Under the pieces are notes generated by a model that saw nothing but the letters and a program-made list of their open reading frames with translations, was not told where the DNA came from and ran no database searches. From assembly GCA_964436365.1 (NCBI GenBank), contig CAYTDF010000120.1, positions 1-10,446 on the forward strand: a stretch of DNA of 10,446 nucleotides. The letters are read 5' to 3'. This DNA comes from an uncultured bacterium. GTDB lineage: Bacteria; Hinthialibacterota; Hinthialibacteria; Hinthialibacterales; G963663365. Both the position numbers and the translations under genes were made by a program. Below are positions 230 to 10,177 of this stretch, one piece after another (the stretch's first letter is position 1; each line of letters begins with the position of its first letter).

Positions 230-1276
230 TCAACGAACCTCGGACCCTCCCCACGAATCCAACGTCCCGATGAGGTCCGAAAACTCCGTGCCGATCGAGT
301 CGAGCAGGCGGGGTACGGCAGTAGAATCATGAATACCGGCGGCTGATGCCGACAGCGGTAGCGCCGCAGCCGCGTGGGCTGCGGGCGGAGCAGCCATATC
401 ACCGGTGTTGAGGATTAGCGGTAGGCCATCTTGAGGTCCGCCGATAATAACGATCTTCGCGTTCGGCGATTGCGCCAGCGCCAGAGTGGCCTCGATTCCC
501 CTCCAACGCAGAAGCTGTGGCGAGATGCCCTCGCCCACAATGTCCTGAAAGTCCCGGATACCGGTAGCCAAAATCACCTTGCGTTTGGCCTCCTCTTCCG
601 CCTGCATCAAAATGTATTTGTATTTTTGCGCGTTGTGCTGTTCGCGAAGTTTGTCTTCGATCGCCTCCTGCACCATCTGCGGCAATACAAGCCGGGTGAT
701 CAGCAGATCATCCAAGGTCACGAATTCCTCCGTCAATTGCAGGAGCGACTCGCTTAATGCGCTTTCGAGCAATCCATATTCCGCCTGATACAGCTCCGCA
801 GGCTCGTACTTGCCGATGATCATACGCAGAGCCGCTTCGACTTCTGGGATAATCACCGCTTCCAAATAATCCGGCCCCAGCTCTTGGTGCAAGTGGTTTA
901 GCTGTATATCCCGATGTGGGTGGTAGCGAATCGAGACAAAAATATCGATGCGTAAACCATCCTGGCTCAAGACATGAAACTCGTGAGTCACTTGTTGCTC
1001 GCGAACGTTATAGATTTCAATCTTGTCCCACGGGTAGATCACATGCAAACCCTCCGAAAACGGCGGTTTGTCTAGCACAGTGCCGCCTCCGAAACGCTTG
1101 AAATAGACGCCGAGTTCGCCCGCATGCACGGTAATGAAGATGCTCTTCCAGAAATAGACAATAAGCAACACGGTCAGGAATAATCCGATCTCAGCCTTGA
1201 ACCGATGCCGCACCACCCATTCACGGATGCGACCAAATACGCCTGGAGGCGCTTGCCCGCCATTCTCGGATGCCAT
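230..1276 (-). CDS. SPFH/band-7 family membrane protein (prohibitin-like), with an N-terminal TM anchor and an Ala/Pro-rich C-terminal tail.
   Basis: A 348-aa ORF has GAGGA 6 nt upstream of its ATG (plus 1283..1287). There is an N-terminal hydrophobic helix (IGLFLTVLLIVYFW), and a colinear match to the prohibitin/HflC pattern follows. The matching motifs are GLHVIYPW, LGPDYLEAVIIPEVEAALRMIIGKYEPAELY, LDDLLITRLVLPQMVQEAIEDKLREQHNAQKYKYILMQAEEEAKRK and AKIVIIGGPQDGLPLILN. The last ~60 aa are a low-complexity A/P/S-rich tail. Confidence 0.85.
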   Translation of the reverse strand: MASENGGQAPPGVFGRIREWVVRHRFKAEIGLFLTVLLIVYFWKSIFITVHAGELGVYFKRFGGGTVLDKPPFSEGLHVIYPWDKIEIYNVREQQVTHEFHVLSQDGLRIDIFVSIRYHPHRDIQLNHLHQELGPDYLEAVIIPEVEAALRMIIGKYEPAELYQAEYGLLESALSESLLQLTEEFVTLDDLLITRLVLPQMVQEAIEDKLREQHNAQKYKYILMQAEEEAKRKVILATGIRDFQDIVGEGISPQLLRWRGIEATLALAQSPNAKIVIIGGPQDGLPLILNTGDMAAPPAAHAAAALPLSASAAGIHDSTAVPRLLDSIGTEFSDLIGTLDSWGGSEVR

Positions 1277-1297
1277 TACATTTCCTCGCGATTGCGG

Positions 1298-1314
1298 CCC
1301 GCCATTCTGGCGGG
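1298..1314 (-). promoter_or_regulatory. GC hairpin in the 5' leader of the SPFH gene (6-bp stem CCCGCC/GGCGGG, 5-nt loop), about 10 nt upstream of its SD.
   Basis: The sequence cccgcc-attct-ggcggg, a perfect inverted repeat, is seen directly. There is no flanking U-run on either strand, so it is not an intrinsic terminator. A 10-bp perfect palindrome AAACCGGTTT at 1343..1352 lies just upstream, adjacent to an A8/T8 tract at 1338..1345. Confidence 0.3.
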
Positions 1315-1593
1315 GGAGTTCGCTAGAATCACCACTTAAAAAAAACCGGTTTATTGAATTCCGACACTAATGCGCATGTTACTGCTGAGAATGTCGGACC
1401 GCAAGGTCCACAGCACTCTGGCGCCGCTAATGAGAAGGCAGTGCGCAAACACCACACGCACTGCATCCGACCTACGGATTCGAAAAGGGCCACTTGCACG
1501 GGTGCTCTTCTGTCCGCTTTCACCGACTGGCGATCTCAGTGCGCCACACCGGCGCCCCGGTCTCACACGCGCCTTTCCTCCCAAGACAGGTCG

Positions 1594-1610
1594 GCCGGTA
1601 TCGGCTTTTT
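1594..1610 (+). terminator. Weak intrinsic-terminator-like motif in plus orientation (GCCG-gtat-CGGC followed by TTTTT) inside the 415-bp non-coding gap.
   Basis: A 4-bp GC stem (5 bp with one G-U pair) is followed by T5 at 1606..1610. No plus-strand gene lies upstream, and the stem is short, so this may be chance. Confidence 0.2.
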
Positions 1611-1692
1611 CTGTAGCCAAGGTCATTCCGTCGCACCATGAACAAATGACCAGTCACCGCACCTCAGGATGTACCGTCCCACAATCCGACTC

Positions 1693-3126
1693 CTAGGCCC
1701 TCGCATCGGTGACGGTTCCGTCGGCTGCGTCACACTTGACGACGGCAATCGCACCCTTGTAATCGCCGCCGAGCGCACCGAGAAACTGCTCCATCAGTTG
1801 GTCCGGCGGCATGGTTAATAAATGCCGCTGATAGATGCCGATCCGATGCGCAGCCTCACCCGCGAAGGTATGAAGAACAATAGACTCTCCTGCCGCCAGA
1901 GTTCCTTCCCAGGTCGTCAACTGGTCCAGGCCAAGTCCCTGGAGCCAGATTTGGAACCGGCCGGTCGTCAAATCGATTTCGACACAGTGAAAAAAGTCAA
2001 TCTCGTAAAATCCTGCCAGGATTTCGTAGACATTCGCATCGCCGTCACCGTCGAGATAACTGCGGATCAGCGTGCTGACGGTCGACACACCGAGGAAGAG
2101 ATTCGACTCGTCCGTTCCCTTCAGGGACCCGGTCACCCCAAGTAACTTCTGCGGCGTGCATTGCACGTCGAGGAAATCCCGGCCCGCGGGGCCGATTATC
2201 CTGCCGCATGCGATAAAGGCGCCCGAGGAAACGCGTACGGGGGCCTGGAATTCGGCTGCGTATTTCGCCCGCAAGCCCTCTCGCGTTCTGTGTCTCTCTT
2301 GTTGCATGAGATTCCGGCTGAAGCGGGAATCGGCCTCATCCAGGACACTGATCATCGTATTGTAGGCGTCCCCCAGTTCTTGGAACTCTTGTATACGGAG
2401 AAAACCGAGCCACCGGCGATCCCCCCCCTCCACAGCCGCTCGAAACGCCTCGGTGAGAATCCGGACCGGCCGCCCGATAAACGTAGAAAGCATCTGAATG
2501 GCAACAACTCCCAGGAGCGCGATCGACAATCCGGTTTTGGCAACGTGGGCGATGACGCCGTGGGACCGCTCAGCGATATGTGAAACATCTGTTTCCACGG
2601 CCACAACCGCGACCATTGCGCCGCTGCCGTCGGAGACGGGCGCCAGTGCGCGTAGAACGGGAATAAGTCTGTCCTCAGACTGGTGCCGCAACCGGCGCAC
2701 GACCGCGCGCTCCATCTCTCCGGCATCACTTCGGTCGTGTGAGAGCAACGCCCGGACCGCCTGCAGATCTTCTTCTGAAATCTTCTCCATATCCACCGCT
2801 GTCCAGACTCCTCGCACATACAGAAGCTGTTCGCCGTCTCTTCCGTAAATCGCCAGGCTGCGAAGCAGTCCGGACTCATAGACGCGTTGCAGTGGAGTCA
2901 AAAGGTGCGACACGGTCTCTGCGTCTTCGGCCTCCTTCCCGCCGAGTCGTTCGAGATAGACGGGATTGATGGATTCCGCCAACGAAACGGCGAAGGCTTC
3001 GATTTCGCCTTGCGCCCCCCACATCATTTCATTTCGCTCGGACAGGTACCTGCTAATTCCCATAATCACGACCGCCCCGAGGAGGAGAGGTAAGATCACG
3101 ATTGAGCTTTGGGTGCGGAGTTTCAT
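1693..3126 (-). CDS. Membrane sensor protein with the order TM, periplasmic Cache-like domain, TM, HAMP, then a C-terminal SpoIIE/PP2C-like domain whose catalytic motifs are degenerate (putative pseudo-phosphatase, RsbU-like architecture).
   Basis: The ORF is 477 aa. TM1 is IVILPLLLGAVVIMGI. A ~170-aa extracytoplasmic region ends in the Cache-type pattern GAMVAVVAVETDVS. TM2 is LSIALLGVVAIQMLSTFI. The HAMP pattern is PVRILTEAFRAAVEGG...EFQELGDAYNTMISVLDEA. The C-terminus aligns colinearly to SpoIIE/PP2C motifs at four places. GRDFLDV matches GGDFYDV. LGVTGSLKG matches GDVSGKG with the Asp lost. FFHCVEIDLTTGRFQIWLQGLG matches FTLLYxVLDxxTGxLxYxNAGH. GESIVLHTFAG matches GDRLLLYTDG with the Asp lost. 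Its start codon lies 1 nt after the stop of the upstream gene. Confidence 0.75.
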   Translation of the reverse strand: MKLRTQSSIVILPLLLGAVVIMGISRYLSERNEMMWGAQGEIEAFAVSLAESINPVYLERLGGKEAEDAETVSHLLTPLQRVYESGLLRSLAIYGRDGEQLLYVRGVWTAVDMEKISEEDLQAVRALLSHDRSDAGEMERAVVRRLRHQSEDRLIPVLRALAPVSDGSGAMVAVVAVETDVSHIAERSHGVIAHVAKTGLSIALLGVVAIQMLSTFIGRPVRILTEAFRAAVEGGDRRWLGFLRIQEFQELGDAYNTMISVLDEADSRFSRNLMQQERHRTREGLRAKYAAEFQAPVRVSSGAFIACGRIIGPAGRDFLDVQCTPQKLLGVTGSLKGTDESNLFLGVSTVSTLIRSYLDGDGDANVYEILAGFYEIDFFHCVEIDLTTGRFQIWLQGLGLDQLTTWEGTLAAGESIVLHTFAGEAAHRIGIYQRHLLTMPPDQLMEQFLGALGGDYKGAIAVVKCDAADGTVTDARA

Positions 3127-3127
3127 A

Positions 3128-3532
3128 TCACTTATCGAATGCTTCGCAGATTCCTTCCCGGTGAGCGAGTGGCAGTAACCCCACCACGAATGCCGGGCAG
3201 TCGTTCAGGATGGTAAAGAAGTGTCCTTTTTGAATCGTCAGACAATGTGCCCCCGCCTCTTCTCCCGCTACGAGTTCGCACGACAGCGGAGCGTCGAAGA
3301 GCAGTGAGTGCAGACCGATGGCTGTCGGCAGTTCCTCTCCCCCAGGCGTCACCAATCGTCCCTCGACGGCGACGATCAGACGCGAGAGCACAGTACCCGG
3401 CTGTACCACAATCTGCCCGGGACGGTAGGTGCGCTCCTTCGCCACCTCCGCGACAAGACCCAGTTCGCCGTCCCGTAGCGCGTCGAAGGGAGGCACATTG
3501 CGAAGTGCGAAAAGTTTCTCAATGAGATTCAT
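3128..3532 (-). CDS. Stand-alone cyclic-nucleotide-binding (CAP/CNB-fold) domain protein of 134 aa, with an atypical phosphate-binding cassette.
   Basis: The stretch LFALRNVPPFDALRDGELGLVAEVAKERTYRPGQIVVQPGTVLSRLIVAVEGRLVT follows the CNB helix and beta-roll consensus. The PBC region (LHSLLFDAPLSCELVAGEE) lacks the conserved Arg. The ATG overlaps the stop of the upstream sensor gene by 4 nt (ATGA). Confidence 0.7.
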   Translation of the reverse strand: MNLIEKLFALRNVPPFDALRDGELGLVAEVAKERTYRPGQIVVQPGTVLSRLIVAVEGRLVTPGGEELPTAIGLHSLLFDAPLSCELVAGEEAGAHCLTIQKGHFFTILNDCPAFVVGLLPLAHREGICEAFDK

Positions 3533-5928
3533 GATCTTGGCCTAGCCACAATCGTAACGGTTGATGCAGGGACACAAACCCCTGCGGTCCTCACCCTAAC
3601 TCTTATTTGGTCCGCCAGGACGTGCGCTCCGGAAGCCGCCATCTGTCCTGCGGTGCTTCCTTCCAGAAAAGAAGCCACCAGTGGCGCTGCTTCCGGAGAA
3701 CTCAGAATCAGCGCCTGGCTCTCTTGGATCGACGTCGATGTAATCTCAGACAGTGGCAGCTCCCGGCGATGCCCCTGAGCGTCAATGGACACACAGGCGA
3801 GCGGACAATTTGGTAAAACGCGCGTCTCGCCGTTCTCGCTGTCCATATAGACGAACCATTCGACGCGGTCCGGGTAGATCCTTTCGAGCAAGGAAGAAAT
3901 CGCGTTCCAGTCACCCCCATGTTTCTCCAGCAAACAAACCGAAGCATAGGCGATCTCGCAACGCAGTTTGGCTTCTTGCAACGCGTCTCCACTTTGCTTC
4001 CCGGCCCAGGCAATTACACGGCTTTCCCATTCCACGGCGCCCGAAAAGTTCCCCACAGTCTCTTCCACGCCGATGTGCAAACTGCCCACGGCCCCCTCAC
4101 GCAACTTCGCGAGGGCGGCATACTCCCGCGATAGCATACGCGTGAGTTCCCGGCGTGCGGATTCATCGGTCAATCGTCTTCGCGCGCTGGATCGCTCGTC
4201 AGACGATTTCTTGAGTGCTTGGCTGAGCCGATTGAACGCGCTGCACAGTTCTTTGACTTCCGCTGGCCCCTCAATCGGGGCTTGCTCGCCGTAGTGCCCC
4301 GCAGCCACGCTGATCGTCTTCTCACGCAACTGCGCGATGGGTTTGGTGAGGGCCAAAATAACGAGGTAGACCGCCAAGAGTGTTGCAAAGAATGCGAAGA
4401 GCCCCACCGCCAGCGTCTTCAACAAGGCGATGCGTGCTTTTGGCTCGATGATAGAAACATCGATATCCGTTCCCACAATCGCACAAACCAAACCGGCGGT
4501 GTCATAGATCGGTGCGTAGCCGGTTTTCAGCAGCCCCCACTCCGCCCACTCCTCGACGTCGGATTGATAGACACCCCCCAATGTGACCTTCCCATAAACC
4601 TGGTACCCAGTGCCCTCCGGATACGTATCTTCGTCACCAATCGCCGAGTGGTCCTCATCGGTACTCGCGTCGAGGAGGTAAATAATATCGTCCGGGCCCT
4701 GTTTCTCCGGATGGTAAAACGCGTACAAATACGTGACGTTCAGTTTCTCTTTGATCCGGCGCATGGGCAAAACTTCGTCGAGGTACGCGTCGCTGACTTC
4801 ATTGTGGAATCCACGCCACCAACCTTCTTCCCAGACGGTCCCGCTGTTTGGATCGATGCCCACCAAACCGTCCGCGGCAGCAAGCAAGTACTGCCGTTCG
4901 GCGTCCCAGGCCAGTCCCCGGATCGCCGACTCGAACAAGAGCAGCGGGGCCGACTCGGACTCCACCACCTCCACGGGACCGTTTTCCTCCGCATCGGGCG
5001 TCTCTACCTCTGTGTCGGCCGGATGCTGCACGTCATGAATATGTTGGGCGATATCCAACACCAGGGAGCGTGCGGCGGCGGTCTCGCCGGGCGACGCCAT
5101 TCCGCGTACGCGGTCGTATTCCAACGCCCGCAAGAAATCCTGTCTGTCGATTTGGACCGGTGCCGAGCGCGCTACCGCCGTCGGCTGAGGACCGGATCGA
5201 AGCCGTCCGAGCGGACGAACGGCCGCTGTCTGCGGATCGATGGCCACCAGTTTCTGGGCTGTTTCGTCGATCCCGAGCAAGCGCCCGGCGGATGGATCGT
5301 AAACAAGGCCTGTCAAAGAAACCGAAAGCGGCCCCACAACCTTGGCGTCTCCCGAGATCGGCTCCACACGGAGCAGCGCGGCCCCGCCCGCGTACAGGGT
5401 CTTTTCCTCCAAGTGATACGCCAGCCCGGTACAGGGTTGCGGCAGAGGCGTAGTAGCCGTTGCTTCACCACGATCCATTGCGATGACGGCCAAATGCGAA
5501 CCTGAGCGGTCCAAGCCGTACAGCACGTCCGCGCCGGGGTCGTGAGCGAGTGCGGTGATTCCTTCCAGTCCGTGCCCTTGAGTCGCTTCCAGGCCGCCAT
5601 GACGCGGATCAATGGTCACCAGTTGCCCTGACTCCCGGTCAATCCCGAACAGCGCAGATCGTGAGTCCACGTACGCCAGGCATTCAACGGCAGGTTTCCG
5701 GAGAATCGTCTTCATCCCCCGATCGCCATCGATAAACGCGCCCACCACCGTGCTAACCGCTGAGAGCTGGCGACCAAAACCGTCGTCAATGCCGCTGTAG
5801 AGGTCTCGATAGGTGTTTGCGCCCATCCAGACCGTTGCCGCCAATAGAATCGGCAGCAGAAAGGTCAGGTACGCCGACTGCATCCGGAATCGGAGCCCAT
5901 CTCGCTTATGGTCTTGCCGTGCGCTCAT
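3529..5928 (-). CDS. Large membrane sensor protein with the order TM, periplasmic YVTN-like beta-propeller repeats plus a Cache-like module, TM, HAMP, then a highly degenerate SpoIIE/PP2C-like C-terminal domain.
   Basis: The ORF is 799 aa. The N-terminal TM is LTFLLPILLAATVWMG. At least four ~40-aa repeats have the form GLAYxxxxxxLYGxDxxxxxLxxIDPxTG, for example GLVYDPSAGRLLGIDETAQKLVAIDPQTAAV and GLAWDAERQYLLAAADGLVGIDPNSGTV. The Cache-like pattern is YDTAGLVCAIVGTDIDVSII. The second TM is LAVGLFAFFATLLAVYLVILAL, and the HAMP pattern is KPIAQLREKTISVAAGHYGEQ...VKELCSAFNRLSQAL. The C-terminus matches the SpoIIE-fold motifs but with the metal-binding Asp residues substituted. VGNFSG stands in place of VGGDFYD. 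FVYMDSENGETRVLPNCPL stands in place of the FTLLY..AGH motif. The GDxLLLYTDG motif has no recognisable counterpart. AGGTGA lies 8 nt upstream of the ATG, and the ATG abuts the stop of the upstream gene (TGAATG). Confidence 0.85.
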   Translation of the reverse strand: MSARQDHKRDGLRFRMQSAYLTFLLPILLAATVWMGANTYRDLYSGIDDGFGRQLSAVSTVVGAFIDGDRGMKTILRKPAVECLAYVDSRSALFGIDRESGQLVTIDPRHGGLEATQGHGLEGITALAHDPGADVLYGLDRSGSHLAVIAMDRGEATATTPLPQPCTGLAYHLEEKTLYAGGAALLRVEPISGDAKVVGPLSVSLTGLVYDPSAGRLLGIDETAQKLVAIDPQTAAVRPLGRLRSGPQPTAVARSAPVQIDRQDFLRALEYDRVRGMASPGETAAARSLVLDIAQHIHDVQHPADTEVETPDAEENGPVEVVESESAPLLLFESAIRGLAWDAERQYLLAAADGLVGIDPNSGTVWEEGWWRGFHNEVSDAYLDEVLPMRRIKEKLNVTYLYAFYHPEKQGPDDIIYLLDASTDEDHSAIGDEDTYPEGTGYQVYGKVTLGGVYQSDVEEWAEWGLLKTGYAPIYDTAGLVCAIVGTDIDVSIIEPKARIALLKTLAVGLFAFFATLLAVYLVILALTKPIAQLREKTISVAAGHYGEQAPIEGPAEVKELCSAFNRLSQALKKSSDERSSARRRLTDESARRELTRMLSREYAALAKLREGAVGSLHIGVEETVGNFSGAVEWESRVIAWAGKQSGDALQEAKLRCEIAYASVCLLEKHGGDWNAISSLLERIYPDRVEWFVYMDSENGETRVLPNCPLACVSIDAQGHRRELPLSEITSTSIQESQALILSSPEAAPLVASFLEGSTAGQMAASGAHVLADQIRVRVRTAGVCVPASTVTIVARPRS

Positions 5929-8900
5929 TCAGTCGCTCACCTGCACTTCGAGAAAACCGAGGGCGATACGCGGGTACGTCCGTGCGCATTTCGACAGATG
6001 ATCCCTGTCCAGTCGATAGACGGTAACCGAACCGGCAGCCGAGGCGCTATGGGGACACGTTCGGATTCCCCGAAGGATTTCCTCTCCGAAGCAATCGTAT
6101 TCCCCACACGTCTTCGTATCCCCGTTCACAAGCCGGACTTCTCCCGACTCGATCGCGTAAATGCAGTCGGCCACATCTCCTTCTGCGTAGATTCGTTCAC
6201 CGTCTTGATAGAAATGCGGCCGTGCTCCGGCTCCAAGGGAAAATAGATCCATTGTGGATATTTGGGAGAACAATCGCGTGCGTGCAAGAATCGCGGTCCG
6301 CTGGATCGAATTGCGGAGCGCTGACCGGTCTCCTTCGTGTTGCAAGATCGAAAACACCGTGTCGCGCACCAATGACGAAGCCGCGCCGATCCCGTAACCG
6401 AGGCGCTCCCGTACGCGGGATAACTGGAAATCTTCAGTCGCCGCCGAACCTGCCGGCATCCAACCAGATGCAGCCAACTCCCACTGTGCCTGAGCCGCTG
6501 CGGAGCGCTCCACTTCCACGTGGCTGTCCCAGGCGGCATTCAGGACCTTTTCGGGCGACATTCGGTCCGCCTTGTAATGACGCAAATAGAACGCAATTCG
6601 ATCTTCGATAGCCCGGCCGTCGATAAGAGGCAACAGAAGATTGAACGTCGAGCGGTCTACGGCCTGTTCAAGCGTTTCCATCGCATTGCCACGTGTCTTC
6701 GGACTTTTCGAACGTAGCGAAGTGGCGATCAATTCATGGCTCGGCAGCTGTCCTCCCAGAGCGAGTATCTCAAGAATGAATTCCAAGGTCGTGATCTGTT
6801 CATCCCGGTAGAAGCGCGACAGCACCTCCAATCCGTACGATGGCGTTTCTAATGCTTCGAGCGCGGCATGGTACTGCAACATCTGGTAAGCGCGAGGCAC
6901 TTCGGCTTCGACCAGTTTGGGGACCAGATACTGCAATTGCGCAAACGCCGACCGGGCCACGGCCCGCACAGCGATGGACCGTCCGGCATAAGGATAGGTT
7001 ACATCGCAGAGCACCTGCGCGCAGGCAGGGACGCTCCGCAGCTCCATGCGGGCAATCGCCTGTTGGGCTTTGCGGCGCTCGAAGGGTGAGAAGGACCGGG
7101 CCTTGGAGAGCATAAGAGGGATCGCGTTCGAGTCGCGAATCCGCTCCAGTGCCTGGAATCCGGCGGAGCGCACGGCTTCATCGTCCTCGTCCAAAGCGGA
7201 TAGGATCGTAGGCAAAATACCGGCCGTACTGCTGTCGGCGAGGTCCGCGACAGCGATCTGCGCGGCGCGGCGCACCTCCGGTTCTGGATCGTGCAAGTAC
7301 TTGGTGAGATAGATCGCGTACCGGCTCTGCCCCGTGTGCCCGAGCGATCGGATTCCCGCCACGCGCTCCTTGTCGCCGCCTTCCAGAAGACTGCGGAGAG
7401 CAGTGCTTGCGAGGCAGCCTTGTTCGACGTCCCAGCTATTCCACAGAACCGCCGTCGCCGTCCCCCGGGCTTCCCTGTGCCGCGATTTCAGCATTCGGAG
7501 TGTGATTTCTGTCGGAATCAGATGATAGCGCCCGAGTTCTTGAATCACCGCATTGCTCACGTCGCGCTCGTGATTCATGACCCAGTCGATCAAGATCAGC
7601 AAGACCTCACCGTCGCGCGCGGCCAGCATCTCCGCCAAGACTTCGTAAATACACTCCAATTCCGCCCCACCACCCCGTTCGAGCAATTGCAGCAACATCC
7701 GCACGGCTCGTTTGCGGTCCTTCAGCCAGAGGATACGGCAAGCGGCGACAGCGTTCTCCAGGTCTTCAGATGCTCCCTGCCGCACGAGCGTTTCGATTTC
7801 CGGTTCATCCATATCCTCAAAAATCTCGGCATCCGCTTCCGAGAAATCCAACCATTCTTTCCGAAGGTTGCCGAGCATCGCACCCACATAATGGTGGCGT
7901 AGACACAGGACGATCCCCATGTACACAGCCGTCAAGCCAACGGCGGCGACCGATACTTGCAAGTGATTCCACGATAGGTAACGGTCCAGTACGAGCAAGC
8001 AGAGACCCGCCAACGCGCCGCCCACGGGGTCGCTGACACCTTCGGTAAACGCGCGAACTCTGGCTTTCACGCCCTTCGGCACGGGATTCAGCATGAGATT
8101 GTAATTGTTGTACTCGATGGCTGTCTGTACTCCCTGGAAGGCAAAGAACGCGAAAATGGCCGCGTAAAACATGGGATTCACGTTTCCGTAAACGGCGATG
8201 AAGGCCACGAAGGTGACAATATAGGCGGTCGGTTGAATCAGTGCCGTGTTGCGTACGCCTATCCGCGTAACCAGACGATTGAAAACAATGAAGGTTACCA
8301 CGGTATTAAAGATATTGACGTACATGAACAAGTATCCAAAGAGTTTTGCCAGTTCACGTTCGTCCGTGTAGCGCAGTTCGAATGCGCGCATATACTGAAA
8401 CTCACAGATGTTCGTAATAAACATCAATGAAAAAGAGGAGAGTGTAAAGAAAAGAACGTACTTCGTTTTCCTGTATGCGCGTCCAACAGTGCGTATCTGG
8501 TCCCAGAAGGCACTCGTTTCCTCTTCTTCTTCTGCTTCGATATAGGAAAAGCGTTTCCCGATGCGCCACATCGGCAGGTTCGCGGCCAGCCCGAGTCCCG
8601 CCCAGATCAAATAGAGATTGGAGACCGCCCAACCGTGATCCATGAATGCCGTCACAGCGTAACCGCCTGCGGTAGCGCCCACCATTCCCATACCGCTGAA
8701 TACGGGAAACAGCCGCTTGGCGCTGAGGATGTCGAAATAGGCGTCGACAAAATTCCAATAGATGGTAAAGACACAGATATAGAAAATGCTGGAGTATATC
8801 TTGATGCCGTAGTAATAGAGCCATCCCAGCGGATGCCCTGCCAAAGCCGTCTCATCTATCAGAGCGATACAGACCCCCCCGGCAAAGAGGATGAAGTTTG

Positions 8901-9159
8901 TCACGGTCTGAAGGCGATACACACCGAGCTTCTGCGTCAAATAGGAGACCAGTGGCGCTACCAAAAACATGACTGCGGGCAGGATAAAATAGACGTAGGG
9001 CAGCTTCTGAGAGCCCAGATTGGAGAGAAACAGAGAGTCGGAAGCAGCAAATCCGATGGCCACACCGGCTTGCAGAAGTCCGCCGACGAGTGAGAACAGA
9101 ACGACTTTTCCGCCTTCGCCTTCGTAGACGCGACAGATTCTCATGACAGCCTTTATCAT
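5929..9159 (-). CDS. Fusion protein of an N-terminal 12-TM TLC-family (ATP/ADP translocase / Npt-like, MFS-fold) nucleotide-transporter domain, central HEAT repeats and a C-terminal cyclic-nucleotide-binding domain.
   Basis: The ORF is 1076 aa. Twelve hydrophobic helices are seen in the first ~420 aa. The TLC signature YWNFVDAYFDILSAKRLFPVFSGMGMVGATAGG matches the FWxFANEIxTxEEAKRFYxLxGxGANxG pattern. The acidic 6/7 loop is EAEEEEETS. HEAT/PBS-lyase-like repeats include DPEPEVRRAAQIAVADLADSST...LDEDDEAVRSAGFQALERIRD. The C-terminal CNB domain reads LFSQISTMDLFSLGAGARPHFYQDGERIYAEGDVADCIYAIESGEVRL...GEYDCFGEEILRG...YRLDRDHL. The alternative start at M6 (9142..9144) has a weak AAGG SD. Confidence 0.9.
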   Translation of the reverse strand: MIKAVMRICRVYEGEGGKVVLFSLVGGLLQAGVAIGFAASDSLFLSNLGSQKLPYVYFILPAVMFLVAPLVSYLTQKLGVYRLQTVTNFILFAGGVCIALIDETALAGHPLGWLYYYGIKIYSSIFYICVFTIYWNFVDAYFDILSAKRLFPVFSGMGMVGATAGGYAVTAFMDHGWAVSNLYLIWAGLGLAANLPMWRIGKRFSYIEAEEEEETSAFWDQIRTVGRAYRKTKYVLFFTLSSFSLMFITNICEFQYMRAFELRYTDERELAKLFGYLFMYVNIFNTVVTFIVFNRLVTRIGVRNTALIQPTAYIVTFVAFIAVYGNVNPMFYAAIFAFFAFQGVQTAIEYNNYNLMLNPVPKGVKARVRAFTEGVSDPVGGALAGLCLLVLDRYLSWNHLQVSVAAVGLTAVYMGIVLCLRHHYVGAMLGNLRKEWLDFSEADAEIFEDMDEPEIETLVRQGASEDLENAVAACRILWLKDRKRAVRMLLQLLERGGGAELECIYEVLAEMLAARDGEVLLILIDWVMNHERDVSNAVIQELGRYHLIPTEITLRMLKSRHREARGTATAVLWNSWDVEQGCLASTALRSLLEGGDKERVAGIRSLGHTGQSRYAIYLTKYLHDPEPEVRRAAQIAVADLADSSTAGILPTILSALDEDDEAVRSAGFQALERIRDSNAIPLMLSKARSFSPFERRKAQQAIARMELRSVPACAQVLCDVTYPYAGRSIAVRAVARSAFAQLQYLVPKLVEAEVPRAYQMLQYHAALEALETPSYGLEVLSRFYRDEQITTLEFILEILALGGQLPSHELIATSLRSKSPKTRGNAMETLEQAVDRSTFNLLLPLIDGRAIEDRIAFYLRHYKADRMSPEKVLNAAWDSHVEVERSAAAQAQWELAASGWMPAGSAATEDFQLSRVRERLGYGIGAASSLVRDTVFSILQHEGDRSALRNSIQRTAILARTRLFSQISTMDLFSLGAGARPHFYQDGERIYAEGDVADCIYAIESGEVRLVNGDTKTCGEYDCFGEEILRGIRTCPHSASAAGSVTVYRLDRDHLSKCARTYPRIALGFLEVQVSD

Positions 9160-9205
9160 GGCGTTGAGGGTGATCTCTTCTCAAGAACTTAGGTTAAACG
9201 GCCCG

Positions 9206-9233
9206 ACGGCAAGGACTGTGAAGCCGGACGGCG
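9206..9233 (-). promoter_or_regulatory. Candidate sigma70-like promoter for the four-gene operon: -35 CTTGCC, a 16-nt spacer, then -10 TAAGTT, read on the minus strand.
   Basis: The hexamers were found by eye in the 178-bp gap upstream of the 9159 start. The TAnnnT -10 pattern is satisfied. This is inference only. Confidence 0.2.
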
Positions 9234-9337
9234 AAAAAGAACCACGCAAACACCGCTCCGGAGAGCAACAAGCCACCCGAAAGCAACGGCCGGAGAGCGA
9301 GGTCTTCGCTATGAATGCACGGCACACGAAGTCCCGG

Positions 9338-10177
9338 CTAGAAACTCCATCCCACGCTGATGAGCGCGCAGAACTCGTCATCGGGATTCACAGAATCCTC
9401 AAACGAAAACTGATAGTGGATCGCAGGAGTGACATACATCTGTTTCCACTCGAATGTCGTGGAGACGCCCGCCGTCGCGTGGCTCCACGCCGACGACGAT
9501 CCGTACGCACCGTCGTTGTATACGACTTGTCCGCTCAAGGACAGTGCTTGCTCCTCCTGGTCCGGCAGCAGGGTCGGAATCGGGACATCGTAACCCAAAC
9601 CGAGGTAGTGAAACCAGCCGTTATCGACCGCGTCCGAACTCTGTACGCCGTCCCAATCGTAATAAACTTCGTAAGAGGGAACGAGAGCCGAAGGCCCGAG
9701 CGAAATCAAGTTAGGAAATGAAATACCCAACCAGATTTCCTCAGAATCGCTCCTGCTGTCGATTTTCGGAAAGGAGAAATAAGTGAACCCGGTCGCGGCG
9801 TCGATCGCATAGCGTTCGTCACTGAAAAACGAACACGCGTAACTCGCGAAGTAGTCGAGTTCCGTAAGATCCTCAAAACCACTCGAGGCTGGCCAAGCCC
9901 CCCACACGCCGGCCGAGCCCCCCCAAAAGTCGAAGGTGATGCTGGGCTGAAGGGTAGCGTGGTCGTCAAAGACATCGTAGCCGTGCCACATGTATTTGGT
10001 GGCGTATGTGAAATCGAGCGTCACGCCAAGATCGTGCTCTCCGATTTCAAAGGCTTGTGACGATCTTGTTCCCAATGTGACAGCCGCCAAAGCCGCGATA
10101 GAAACGGCGAGACGTCGCAAACGGCTCTCGTGCAGAATTCCCATGGAAGAGCGTGTGCCTTTCATTATGTTCCTCAC
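9338..10177 (-). CDS. Secreted outer-membrane beta-barrel protein of the TorF/Gcw_chp-like putative porin family.
   Basis: The ORF is 279 aa. The signal peptide is RLRRLAVSIAALAAVTLGTRSSQA|FE. The N-terminal motif LDFTYATKYMWHGYDVFDDHATLQPSITFDFWG resembles the family signature (S/T-DY-x-x-RG-x-x-Q..PA-x-Q-x-x-x-D-Y). Alternating aromatic and small residues suggest beta-strands, and the protein ends on an aromatic residue (..VGWSF), which is typical of OM barrels. The start could equally be M5 (10163..10165, preceded by AGGAAC) or M12 (10142..10144). Confidence 0.75.
   Translation of the reverse strand: MRNIMKGTRSSMGILHESRLRRLAVSIAALAAVTLGTRSSQAFEIGEHDLGVTLDFTYATKYMWHGYDVFDDHATLQPSITFDFWGGSAGVWGAWPASSGFEDLTELDYFASYACSFFSDERYAIDAATGFTYFSFPKIDSRSDSEEIWLGISFPNLISLGPSALVPSYEVYYDWDGVQSSDAVDNGWFHYLGLGYDVPIPTLLPDQEEQALSLSGQVVYNDGAYGSSSAWSHATAGVSTTFEWKQMYVTPAIHYQFSFEDSVNPDDEFCALISVGWSF

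Follow-up and report, generated by a model that had tools for sequence, protein, structure and literature searches.

A conserved four-gene bacterial module in which an NTT/TLC-like transporter fusion accompanies two probable membrane pseudophosphatases and a degenerate CNB-fold protein

Four closely packed genes on the minus strand of a contig from an uncultured bacterium raise the question of whether they form a functional unit and, if so, which signal might reach the transporter that one of them appears to encode. A first-pass annotation of this DNA, made from its letters alone, had proposed a co-oriented, tightly coupled operon for cyclic-nucleotide signalling and nucleotide transport. The window analysed here (the whole stretch of 10,446 nucleotides) contains these genes, designated G1 to G4, together with a porin-like gene upstream (G0) and a Band_7 gene downstream (Table 1). 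All four open reading frames were re-read exactly as first described, as were their junctions. The G1 stop codon directly abuts the G2 start codon (TGAATG, within GACTGAATG), G2 and G3 overlap by 4 nt (ATGA), and G3 and G4 are separated by 1 nt (TGAtATG). Junctions in the orthologous loci L001-L005 are likewise tight (-14 to +13 nt), with the exception of one 98-nt gap.

Table 1. Positions of the genes and domains of the four-gene locus and its neighbours in the window
Feature	Position	Strand	Length or residues	Description
G1	5929..9159	-	1076 aa	NTT/TLC-like 12-TM MFS transporter, HEAT solenoid, C-terminal CNB
G1 transmembrane domain	7840..9159	-	aa 1-440	Predicted MFS fold; best matches are NTT ATP/ADP translocases
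G1 HEAT-repeat solenoid	6340..7833	-	aa 443-940	Pfam HEAT_2 and HEAT
G1 CNB domain	5932..6309	-	aa 951-1076	C-terminal; Pfam cNMP_binding
G2	3529..5928	-	799 aa	TM, PAS/sCache-like sensor with beta-propeller insert, TM, HAMP, probable pseudo-PP2C
G2 beta-propeller insert	4813..5688	-	aa 81-372	Predicted periplasmic, YVTN/YncE-type
G2 HAMP	4210..4362	-	aa 523-573	Pfam E=1.3e-8, 35.5 bits (cut-off 25)
G2 C-terminal domain	3532..4131	-	aa about 600-799	Degenerate, PP2C-like
G3	3128..3532	-	134 aa	Stand-alone CNB-fold protein, degenerate phosphate-binding cassette
G4	1693..3126	-	477 aa	TM, PAS/sCache sensor, TM, HAMP, probable pseudo-PP2C
G4 sensor	2587..2964	-	aa about 55-180	PAS/sCache
G4 HAMP	2293..2484	-	aa about 215-278	
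G4 C-terminal domain	1732..2244	-	aa 295-465	Probable pseudo-PP2C
G0	9338..10177	-	279 aa as listed	Gcw_chp/TorF-family outer-membrane beta-barrel
SPFH/Band_7 gene	230..1276	-		Pfam Band_7 E=5.6e-24

Neighbours in a single genome could owe their position to chance or local genome history and share no function. In 62 of the 65 genomic loci where 4 kb or more of sequence lies downstream of G1, the genes G2, G3, and G4 follow it in this order as separate open reading frames, and the three exceptions are not clean absences: G2 and G3 are merged in a single ORF call in L040 and L041, and the G4 slot of L062 holds an unrecognised ORF of 448 aa. A reverse search from G2 recovered the same gene set in 35 metagenome loci, including a permuted order, G2-G3-G4-x-G1, so that the association outlasts the gene order itself. 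The loci come from over a dozen bacterial phyla and reach from Omnitrophota-like MAGs to cultured Sphingomonadales; cultured carriers include Sphingopyxis witflariensis DSM 14551, Novosphingobium naphthalenivorans NBRC 102051, and Azospirillum sp. RU38E. Because all informative loci, from many phyla and from both search directions, carry the genes together, chance adjacency is vanishingly improbable and is ruled out by the synteny data. The four genes are effectively inseparable, and we are highly confident that they constitute a conserved module with the domain identities given in Table 1. G2-G4 were not found beside distant classical NTT-HEAT relatives. The first-pass annotation had recognised no named system in the combination, and no description of it was found in the literature searched.

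The domain architecture first guessed for all four products proved essentially right. In Pfam searches, the expected TLC, HEAT_2, and cNMP_binding models matched G1 and HAMP matched G2, while G3 stayed below threshold and SpoIIE gave no match. G1, whose database gene call begins at Met6, has about 100 homologues of the same architecture. Its match to TLC (PF03219) is marginal (23.2 bits, cut-off 21; profile positions 151-374 of 491) and is accompanied by one to MFS_1, and its CNB domain matches cNMP_binding (PF00027) with 45.2 bits (cut-off 27.5). The AF2 model (pLDDT 90.2) contains a complete 12-TM MFS fold and an all-helical HEAT region forming a cytoplasmic solenoid of about 500 aa, and its pTM of 0.83 indicates a defined TM-HEAT-CNB arrangement. 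Profile searches agree: the HEAT profile matches alphaRep/HEAT structures (E down to 1e-40), the CNB profile matches the CNBs of PKG and PKA, and the sole strong PDB matches of the transmembrane profile are NTT1 (E=2.5e-7) and AtNTT1 (1.1e-4). The region of the AKR(F/L)(Y/F) motif aligns between G1 and NTT, and residues such as W135, K148, R149, N352, N354, R369, and E373 are invariant in 90 homologues. These invariant polar and charged intramembrane residues favour a working transport path. With regard to its cargo, the nucleotide transport proposed at first is weakly supported, since the NTTs are the nearest relatives of G1 in sequence and the top three Foldseek matches are ATP/ADP translocators, but identity is only 14-15%.

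The G1 CNB domain of the window protein retains FGE, with Cys in the column of the canonical Arg (FGEEILRGIRTCPHSASA). In the cassette columns of 90 homologues, Gly occurs in 73, Glu in 36, Arg in 31, and Tyr, in place of Arg, in 26, and the G-E...R signature is intact in about one third. In alphaproteobacterial G1 proteins, tblastn matches stop near residue 846 and the ORFs measure about 876 aa; this branch appears to have lost the CNB domain entirely.

The single G3 sequence falls below the Pfam cNMP_binding threshold (E=0.016, 15.6 bits), and a profile of six orthologues retrieves CNB domains from the PDB at E=2e-20 and matches a single PfPKG CNB-D at 1.2e-10. Across 69 family members, the Glu column of the cassette is occupied by A/V/L, with Glu in just two, the Arg column by A/V/L/I/T, with Arg absent among the common residues, and Gly is present in 32. 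Judged by these profiles, G3 is a CNB fold without the Glu and Arg that bind the cyclic phosphate. The expectation that two products carry cNMP-binding domains therefore holds for the fold in both G1 and G3, and fails for the cassette of G3.

These observations bear on the reading closest to the original proposal, in which cAMP or cGMP bound to the G1 CNB and to G3 adjusts NTT-mediated nucleotide exchange in an ATP/ADP-type carrier, while G2 and G4 pass periplasmic signals into cyclase activity. The Pfam TLC and cNMP_binding matches of G1, the NTTs as its best sequence and Foldseek matches, and the G-E...R signature kept in a third of its homologues are in keeping with it, as is the cAMP control proposed for NTT-HEAT-cNBD proteins (PMC5381601). 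In loci from Bdellovibrionota and Bacteroidota, class III cyclases adjoin the module, and a possible divergent cyclase-like family (C5, E=0.03) occurs in alphaproteobacterial ones. However, no more than 7 of the 69 loci have a recognisable cyclase next to it, and the C5 family has no Pfam match. The near absence of the binding residues from G3, the Cys of the window G1 and the Tyr of many homologues, the alphaproteobacteria that retain all four genes apparently without a G1 CNB, and the low identity of G1 to the NTTs also argue against it, and we judge this whole reading unlikely. The cyclic-nucleotide signal originally inferred is thus weakly supported, given the degenerate G3 cassette and the Cys in the window G1, and the annotation of a CNB fold is here no proof of cyclic-nucleotide signalling.

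Pfam finds only HAMP and a weak DUF4394 match in G2, the latter being present in 10 of 11 G2 members. A profile search confirms the propeller, with matches to the PDB entries 1l0q (E=1.4e-12), YncE 3vgz (6.8e-12), and LRP6 (2e-9). According to a coverage map, the orthologues of alphaproteobacteria, L015, and L021 have no propeller, and a profile of this short form matched HAMP only in the PDB, not Cache/PAS; the fold of G2 is inferred by homology only. The single G4 sequence gave no HAMP match, which was obtained in 36 of 81 family members and, weakly, at positions 217-264 of the G4 profile. In the AF2 model of G4, helices run on unbroken from TM2, and a PAS fold and a PP2C (PPM) fold are predicted. 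The sensors of G2 and G4 are homologous (hhalign, 98.1%, E=1e-13), and so are their C-terminal domains when deeper profiles are compared (94.5%, E=1.6e-8; small alignments had remained non-significant at E=0.033). Each of them also shows homology to the sensor of the active neighbouring PP2C (98.4% and 98.8%). On these comparisons, G2 and G4 are full-length paralogues. The depth of the search mattered for G4: word-indexed searches gave two and then seven homologous proteins, and exhaustive HMMER with the C-domain gave 127 representatives.

The PP2C identity of the C-terminal domains rests on structure, because hhalign to genuine neighbouring PP2Cs stayed non-significant (E=0.007-0.06). Up to E=10, neither G2 nor G4 was matched by SpoIIE/PP2C models, the SpoIIE HMM matched none of the 81 G4-family members, and a profile search of the PDB gave no PP2C. 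The metal-binding Asp motifs (GGD, GDxxGxG, TDG, and DD) were scored through a low-confidence profile alignment, which agrees with the strand and helix order of the model; the resulting call is backed by fold and topology, not by superposing structures residue by residue. In the genuine neighbours, the motif Asp is present in 28-30 of 35 rows, a set that still held about six misaligned cyclases. Among the 81 G4-family members, Asp occupies motif I in 20, including the window protein (GRDF); motif II is most often Arg (38) and motif IV Gly (74), with Asp not among the common residues of either, and motif III has Thr in 43 and Asp in 11. In the 42 members of the G2 family, Asp is conserved at none of the motif positions, and the only conserved residue is one Trp (41/42). 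The eroded catalytic residues noted in the first-pass annotation are therefore a property of both families, and because neither conserves the four metal-binding Asp, G2 and G4 are very probably pseudophosphatases.

Alternatively, G2 and G4 might be active atypical phosphatases that employ another set of metals or ligands, such as a conserved family-specific His; the module would then amount to an ordinary sensor-phosphatase system with G3 or G1 as its target. Where the motifs align, the G4 family does conserve residues of its own (F in 65, G in 70, H in 65, and G in 74 of 81 members), and 20 of its members keep the first Asp. Nevertheless, we consider such activity very unlikely: motifs II-IV of the G4 family are not conserved as Asp, the G2 family retains no motif, the SpoIIE HMM is unmatched throughout the G4 family, and a genuinely active paralogue is kept beside the module in 42 of 69 loci. 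This retention suits a split of roles between one working enzyme and its inactive copies.

The neighbour census comprises 69 loci and is skewed, with about 42 of them alphaproteobacterial. Besides the active HAMP-PP2C paralogue, whose cluster is heterogeneous and includes HAMP- or TM-linked cyclases, a STAS gene flanks the module in 34 loci and an RsbW-like kinase in 35. The STAS genes correspond by Pfam to a minus-strand cluster of 135-aa ORFs in related loci; plus-strand ORFs of 100 aa, also considered as candidates, were rejected, since Pfam places STAS on the minus strand. No active PP2C, STAS, or kinase gene lies within the 10.4-kb window. The reported lack of a STAS antagonist and a GHKL kinase thus applies to this contig and not to many related loci, and the module is linked to partner-switching systems without itself being one.

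Other neighbours are more variable. G0 ends 178 nt upstream of G1 and shows a signal-peptide-like N-terminus (..SSQA/FE) and the C-terminus ..VGWSF; its match to TIGR02001 is under the cut-off (E=3.4e-4). The representative of the porin cluster matches Pfam Gcw_chp (28.5 bits, cut-off 24), and the HMM of this family, which also matches G0, detects a porin close to the module in 38 of the 69 loci, immediately upstream in L001 and L002. G0 is probably a fifth, facultative member. Its true start may lie further downstream than listed. The Band_7 gene, on the same strand after a gap of 416 nt downstream of G4, is a recurrent yet infrequent neighbour (6/69) outside the core module. A 91-aa ORF at 1351..1626 appears spurious. 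Promoter and terminator scans gave signals no better than chance, and an Rfam search gave no match and thus no riboswitch clue to the ligand. The module is not a known defence system, as PADLOC returned generic HEAT matches only. A LysA-like decarboxylase occurs near the module in 44 of 69 loci, and an N-methyltransferase is a recurrent neighbour. As hints to the cargo of G1, these genes and the porin suggest a small amine or a derivative of an amino acid at least as much as a nucleotide.

The same neighbours could also be taken to mean that G1 is not primarily a carrier but a membrane scaffold or "transceptor" that brings G2, G3, and G4 together on its HEAT solenoid. The output of the module would then lie elsewhere, for example in control of the decarboxylase/methyltransferase pathway or of a partner-switching target. 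A large HEAT solenoid is a typical platform for protein interactions, the decarboxylase, STAS, and kinase genes recur at the frequencies given above, and neither a sigma factor nor another obvious output gene was seen in the loci. On the other hand, the transmembrane domain is highly conserved, with its invariant intramembrane residues, and the model retains the complete transporter fold, so that we hold a scaffold role to be quite unlikely.

The preferred model is a pair of pseudophosphatase receptors derived from partner switching that regulates the transporter G1 through its HEAT/CNB tail. Briefly, an active sensor phosphatase would have been duplicated to give G2 and G4, which may act as a receptor that senses the periplasm. 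This receptor is plausibly a G2:G4 heterodimer, as HAMP proteins are dimeric and the two genes always occur together. The dead PP2C domains of the pair would serve as binding modules, by analogy with RssB and TAB1, and would attach to G3, to the HEAT/CNB tail of G1, or to both, and so turn the transporter on or off. In loci with an active PP2C, STAS, and a kinase, this switch might be coupled to a phosphorylation cycle. As a whole, this mechanism is tentative, and we give it slightly less than an even chance. The more specific proposal, that a heterodimeric dead-PP2C receptor and a ligand-blind CNB-fold adaptor gate an NTT-like carrier on periplasmic cues by docking on its HEAT/CNB tail and thereby represent a previously unrecognised form of regulation, is possible but doubtful. 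If true, a lineage of partner-switching phosphatases would have been re-purposed as a non-enzymatic transporter switch, and the enigmatic NTT-HEAT proteins would gain their first functional handle.

Among known systems, the closest are the NTT-HEAT(-cNBD) proteins, described as a widespread, monophyletic, and uncharacterised class (Major et al. 2017, PMC5381601). The three-part layout of the NTT-HEAT-cNBD fusions, a TLC/NTT-type transporter followed by HEAT and cNBD, is also that of G1. As their companion, no more than a cNBD gene immediately downstream has been reported (PMC5381601), an arrangement that P0113 and P0116, two distant relatives, also show. In contrast, the subfamily of the window G1, only 20-23% identical to distant NTT-HEAT relatives, is always accompanied by two putative pseudo-PP2C receptors and a degenerate CNB protein. 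NTT-HEAT(-cNBD) proteins reach Chlamydiae, cyanobacteria, and oomycetes and were catalogued in 2017, with no function assigned since; as one large subfamily is strictly tied to defined signalling partners, their function becomes experimentally approachable.

SLC9C1, the sperm Na+/H+ exchanger, is likewise a secondary transporter whose large regulatory extension in the cytoplasm ends in a CNB, and it is among the Foldseek matches of G1. However, it has an NhaA-type fold and a voltage sensor where G1 has an MFS fold, and given a global TM-score of 0.11, it is a design analogy only and no relative. The C-terminal domain of RssB and eukaryotic TAB1 are pseudo-PP2C binding modules in soluble adaptors, whereas the predicted pseudo-PP2C domains of G2 and G4 form the output of transmembrane HAMP receptors, with putative binding partners. 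HAMP-PP2C sensor phosphatases, such as SiaA of the Pseudomonas aeruginosa SiaABCD system and those of the RsbU type, differ in that the catalytic Asp are unconserved and the SpoIIE HMM unmatched in G2 and G4, that each module has two apparently dead copies, and that the window contains no STAS or kinase gene; the partner here is a transporter, not a sigma factor or a diguanylate cyclase. The module offers a clear bacterial case of paired, probable membrane pseudophosphatases, presumably descended from an active sensor PP2C, STAS, and kinase set and often still found beside it, which bears on the diversification of partner-switching modules.

The four minus-strand genes of the module encode a transporter/HEAT/CNB protein (G1), two HAMP receptors with a degenerate PP2C-like domain (G2 and G4), and a stand-alone CNB-fold protein (G3), and lie in a window that spans the entire 10,446-bp NCBI contig. 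The ORF coordinates and junctions in the first-pass annotation, which had proposed a cyclic-nucleotide signalling and nucleotide-transport operon, were matched exactly by the ORF listing and by direct reading of the sequence: G1/G2 reads GAC-TGA-ATG with no gap, G2/G3 overlap by 4 nt (ATGA), and G3/G4 are separated by 1 nt (TGA-t-ATG). In the G1 start region (9145..9159), the public gene call begins at Met6 (1071 aa, MRICRV...) rather than at the first ATG (1076 aa). The spacer downstream of G4 (1277..1692) holds a 91-aa ORF (1351..1626, minus strand), rich in Arg, Gly, and Ser and without database matches, which is probably spurious; the sole terminator-like feature there is a hairpin (1464..1438) that has a weak T-tract.

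Genes in the window (G1 to G4 as in the ORF listing)
Gene	Position	Strand	Length (aa)	Remark
G1	5929..9159	-	1076	
G2	3529..5928	-	799	
G3	3128..3532	-	134	
G4	1693..3126	-	477	
Gcw_chp barrel	9338..10177	-	279	upstream ORF, 178 nt from G1
SPFH/Band_7	230..1276	-		downstream of G4 after 416 nt

The order G1-G2-G3-G4 and its tight junctions were present in all of the first five loci examined (an Omnitrophota MAG, Ca. Hinthialibacter, Cloacimonadota, Bdellovibrionota, and a JGI contig; 49-29% identity). Scanning a single genome for each GTDB species yielded 75 loci, whose six-frame ORFs were searched with HMMs of the four proteins; of these and the first five together, 65 had at least 4 kb downstream. 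Synteny in related genomes was clear: in 62 of these 65 loci G2, G3, and G4 follow one another in order, each as its own ORF, two others combine G2 and G3 in a single ORF call, and one has an unrecognised ORF in the G4 slot. In two Sphingopyxis MAGs (L040 and L041, 12405-13796), a single 463-aa ORF is matched by both the G2 and G3 HMMs and is either a fusion or an ORF-calling artefact. In a Verrucomicrobiota MAG, the 448-aa ORF in the G4 slot (L062:15286-16632) had no match to Pfam or to the G4 HMM; it may represent a G4 that has diverged very strongly.

The loci, cultured strains among them, come from Acidobacteriota, Kiritimatiellae, Verrucomicrobiota, Gemmatimonadota, Bacteroidota including Balneolales, Armatimonadota, Campylobacterota, a Leptolyngbya MAG, Deltaproteobacteria, and many Alphaproteobacteria. 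The reverse search, from G2 in metagenomes, agreed: in 35 loci G3 and G4 adjoin G2, and G1 is near wherever space allows. Co-occurrence survives rearrangement, and four Ga0272440 contigs (L082, L083, L084, and L086) carry the permuted order G2-G3-G4-x-G1, with G1 2-3 kb downstream of G4. On the other hand, three classical NTT-HEAT(-cNBD) proteins that are distant relatives have no G2, G3, or G4 beside them. Chance therefore does not account for the association, which belongs to this G1 subfamily specifically, and the four genes form an obligatory module.

Single-sequence Pfam searches bore out only part of the domain assignments of the first-pass annotation. The domains of G1 (TLC at 23.2 bits against a cut-off of 21, MFS_1, HEAT_2, and cNMP_binding at 45 bits) and the HAMP domain of G2, its sole match besides a weak one to DUF4394, were recovered, whereas G3 was sub-threshold for cNMP_binding (E=0.016), G4 had no match, and SpoIIE/PP2C was matched in none of the four products at E up to 10.

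In the predicted model of G1 (pLDDT 90.2, pTM 0.83), 12 TM helices are followed by a HEAT solenoid at aa 443-940 and then by a CNB domain at aa 951-1075; its top three PDB matches in Foldseek are the ATP/ADP translocators NTT1 and AtNTT1. A TM-only profile searched against the whole PDB returned NTT1 (E=2.5e-7), AtNTT1 (1.1e-4), OxlT, and nothing else, and its alignment covers the AKR(F/L) signature. About 100 G1 homologues share length and architecture. A rival to the carrier assignment suggested by these matches is that G1 serves as a scaffold without a transport role.

With regard to the CNB domains, a six-ortholog G3 profile matched solved CNB domains at E=2e-20 and the isolated PfPKG CNB-D at 1.2e-10. 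In the cassette (the cyclic-phosphate-binding motif) of the G3 family (69 sequences), the Glu column holds A/V/L, the Arg column A/V/L/I/T, and Gly is kept in 32/69. Among 90 G1 homologues, Glu and Arg are kept in about one third, Tyr occupies the Arg column in 26, and the window protein has Cys there. Because these residues are degenerate, the CNB fold in G1 and G3 does not establish cyclic-nucleotide binding, which the alternative of a cNMP-gated nucleotide carrier would involve.

Deep profiles of G2 and G4 matched each other in the C-domains (94.5% probability, E=1.6e-8) and in the sensors (98.1%, E=1e-13), by which the two are full-length paralogues. G2 has some 290 extra residues (aa 81-372), which a profile search assigned to a YVTN/YncE-type beta-propeller (1l0q, E=1.4e-12; 3vgz, 6.8e-12); DUF4394 was matched in 10 of 11 members for this insert, which is absent from some lineages. 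PP2C motif columns were mapped by profile alignment to genuine neighbouring PP2Cs, in agreement with the strand/helix order of the G4 AF2 model (81-sequence alignment, pLDDT 89.4). The neighbours keep the Asp motifs GGD, GDVSGKG, TDG, and DD in 28-30 of 35 rows, a set that includes about six misaligned cyclases. In the G4 family (n=81), motif I has Asp in 20 members, the window protein among them (GRDF); motif II has Arg in 38, with Asp not among the common residues; motif III has Thr in 43 and Asp in 11; and motif IV has Gly in 74. None of the four Asp motifs is kept in the G2 family, where one Trp is the sole strongly conserved residue. The erosion of catalytic residues noted in the first pass thus holds across both families, and since the catalytic Asp is not conserved, G2 and G4 are very probably both pseudophosphatases; the rival reading is that they are atypical but active phosphatases.

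Flanking ORFs were clustered and annotated with Pfam and NCBIfam at 69 loci, a sample skewed by about 42 alphaproteobacterial ones. The neighbours comprise a LysA-like fold-III PLP decarboxylase (44/69), an active HAMP-SpoIIE phosphatase (42; SpoIIE E about 1e-47 to 1e-53), a Gcw_chp/TorF-type outer-membrane barrel (38), an RsbW-like HATPase_c_2 kinase (35), a STAS anti-sigma antagonist (34), a GntF-like N-methyltransferase (9), an MTS-type methyltransferase (8), an ABC transporter ATPase (7), Band_7 (6), and a solute-binding protein (6). Band_7 beside the module is usually accompanied by the ABC ATPase and an SBP_bac_8 binding protein.

The active phosphatase (L036:8241-9881(-), L015:17487-19148, L014:17389-18741, and others) has a periplasmic sensor homologous to the G2 and G4 sensors (98.8% and 98.4%). 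This neighbour is thus a third, catalytically intact paralogue, and the homology suggests that a sensor phosphatase of this kind was duplicated to give G2 and G4. In alphaproteobacterial loci, G4 is followed immediately by STAS, which is convergent with it, and the RsbW-like kinase, and then by the decarboxylase; the module is tied to partner-switching parts by evolution and often also by position. In L033, for example, the STAS gene is at 15508-15858(-) and the kinase at 15943-16386(+). The short contig that makes up the window carries no active PP2C, STAS, or kinase gene, and such genes may lie elsewhere in its genome. The window ORF upstream of G1, which has a signal-peptide-like N-terminus and ..VGWSF at the C-terminus, is probably a fifth, facultative member outside the first-pass coordinates, because the same Gcw_chp family adjoins the module so often elsewhere.

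Class III cyclases were recognised in at most 7 of the 69 loci. Conserved proteins of some 265 aa (alignment A12; L033:7429-8220 and 33 other alphaproteobacterial loci) form a family that has no Pfam match; its motifs flsvDlvGST and D..G..l.lG.Rl resemble class III nucleotidyl cyclases, and the cyclase domain of Rv1900c (1ybt, E=0.03) is its single, weak match. The association would extend to about 41 of the 69 loci if these proteins are truly cyclases. In a Bdellovibrionota MAG (L004), an aquaporin (MIP)-cNMP_binding fusion (8611-9714(-)) and a HAMP-guanylate/adenylate cyclase (17128-19002(+)) flank the module.

As to mechanism, we infer that G2 and G4 form a receptor sensing the periplasm, plausibly as a heterodimer, whose pseudophosphatase domains would bind G3 and/or the HEAT/CNB tail of G1 and so regulate the carrier. 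Rather than a nucleotide, G1 may carry an amine-type metabolite. The NNMT/PNMT-type N-methyltransferase, nearest to guanitoxin GntF, adjoins both module and decarboxylase where it occurs (L023:12084-12911, L021:9228-9977, and others) and hints at a methylated-amine product.

Rfam and PADLOC added nothing for the window, and full-text literature searches for NTT-HEAT with PP2C, partner switching, pseudophosphatase, HAMP, or STAS gave nothing relevant. NTT-HEAT and NTT-HEAT-cNBD fusions have been catalogued as widespread and uncharacterised, some NTT-HEAT-type genes being followed by a cNBD gene, and HAMP or PP2C partners were not mentioned (Major et al. 2017, PMC5381601). The module joins an NTT-like MFS-HEAT-CNB protein to two paralogous HAMP receptors, whose PP2C folds lack conserved catalytic Asp, and to a CNB-fold protein whose cassette is degenerate; it is real and widespread, and is built from known kinds of parts.
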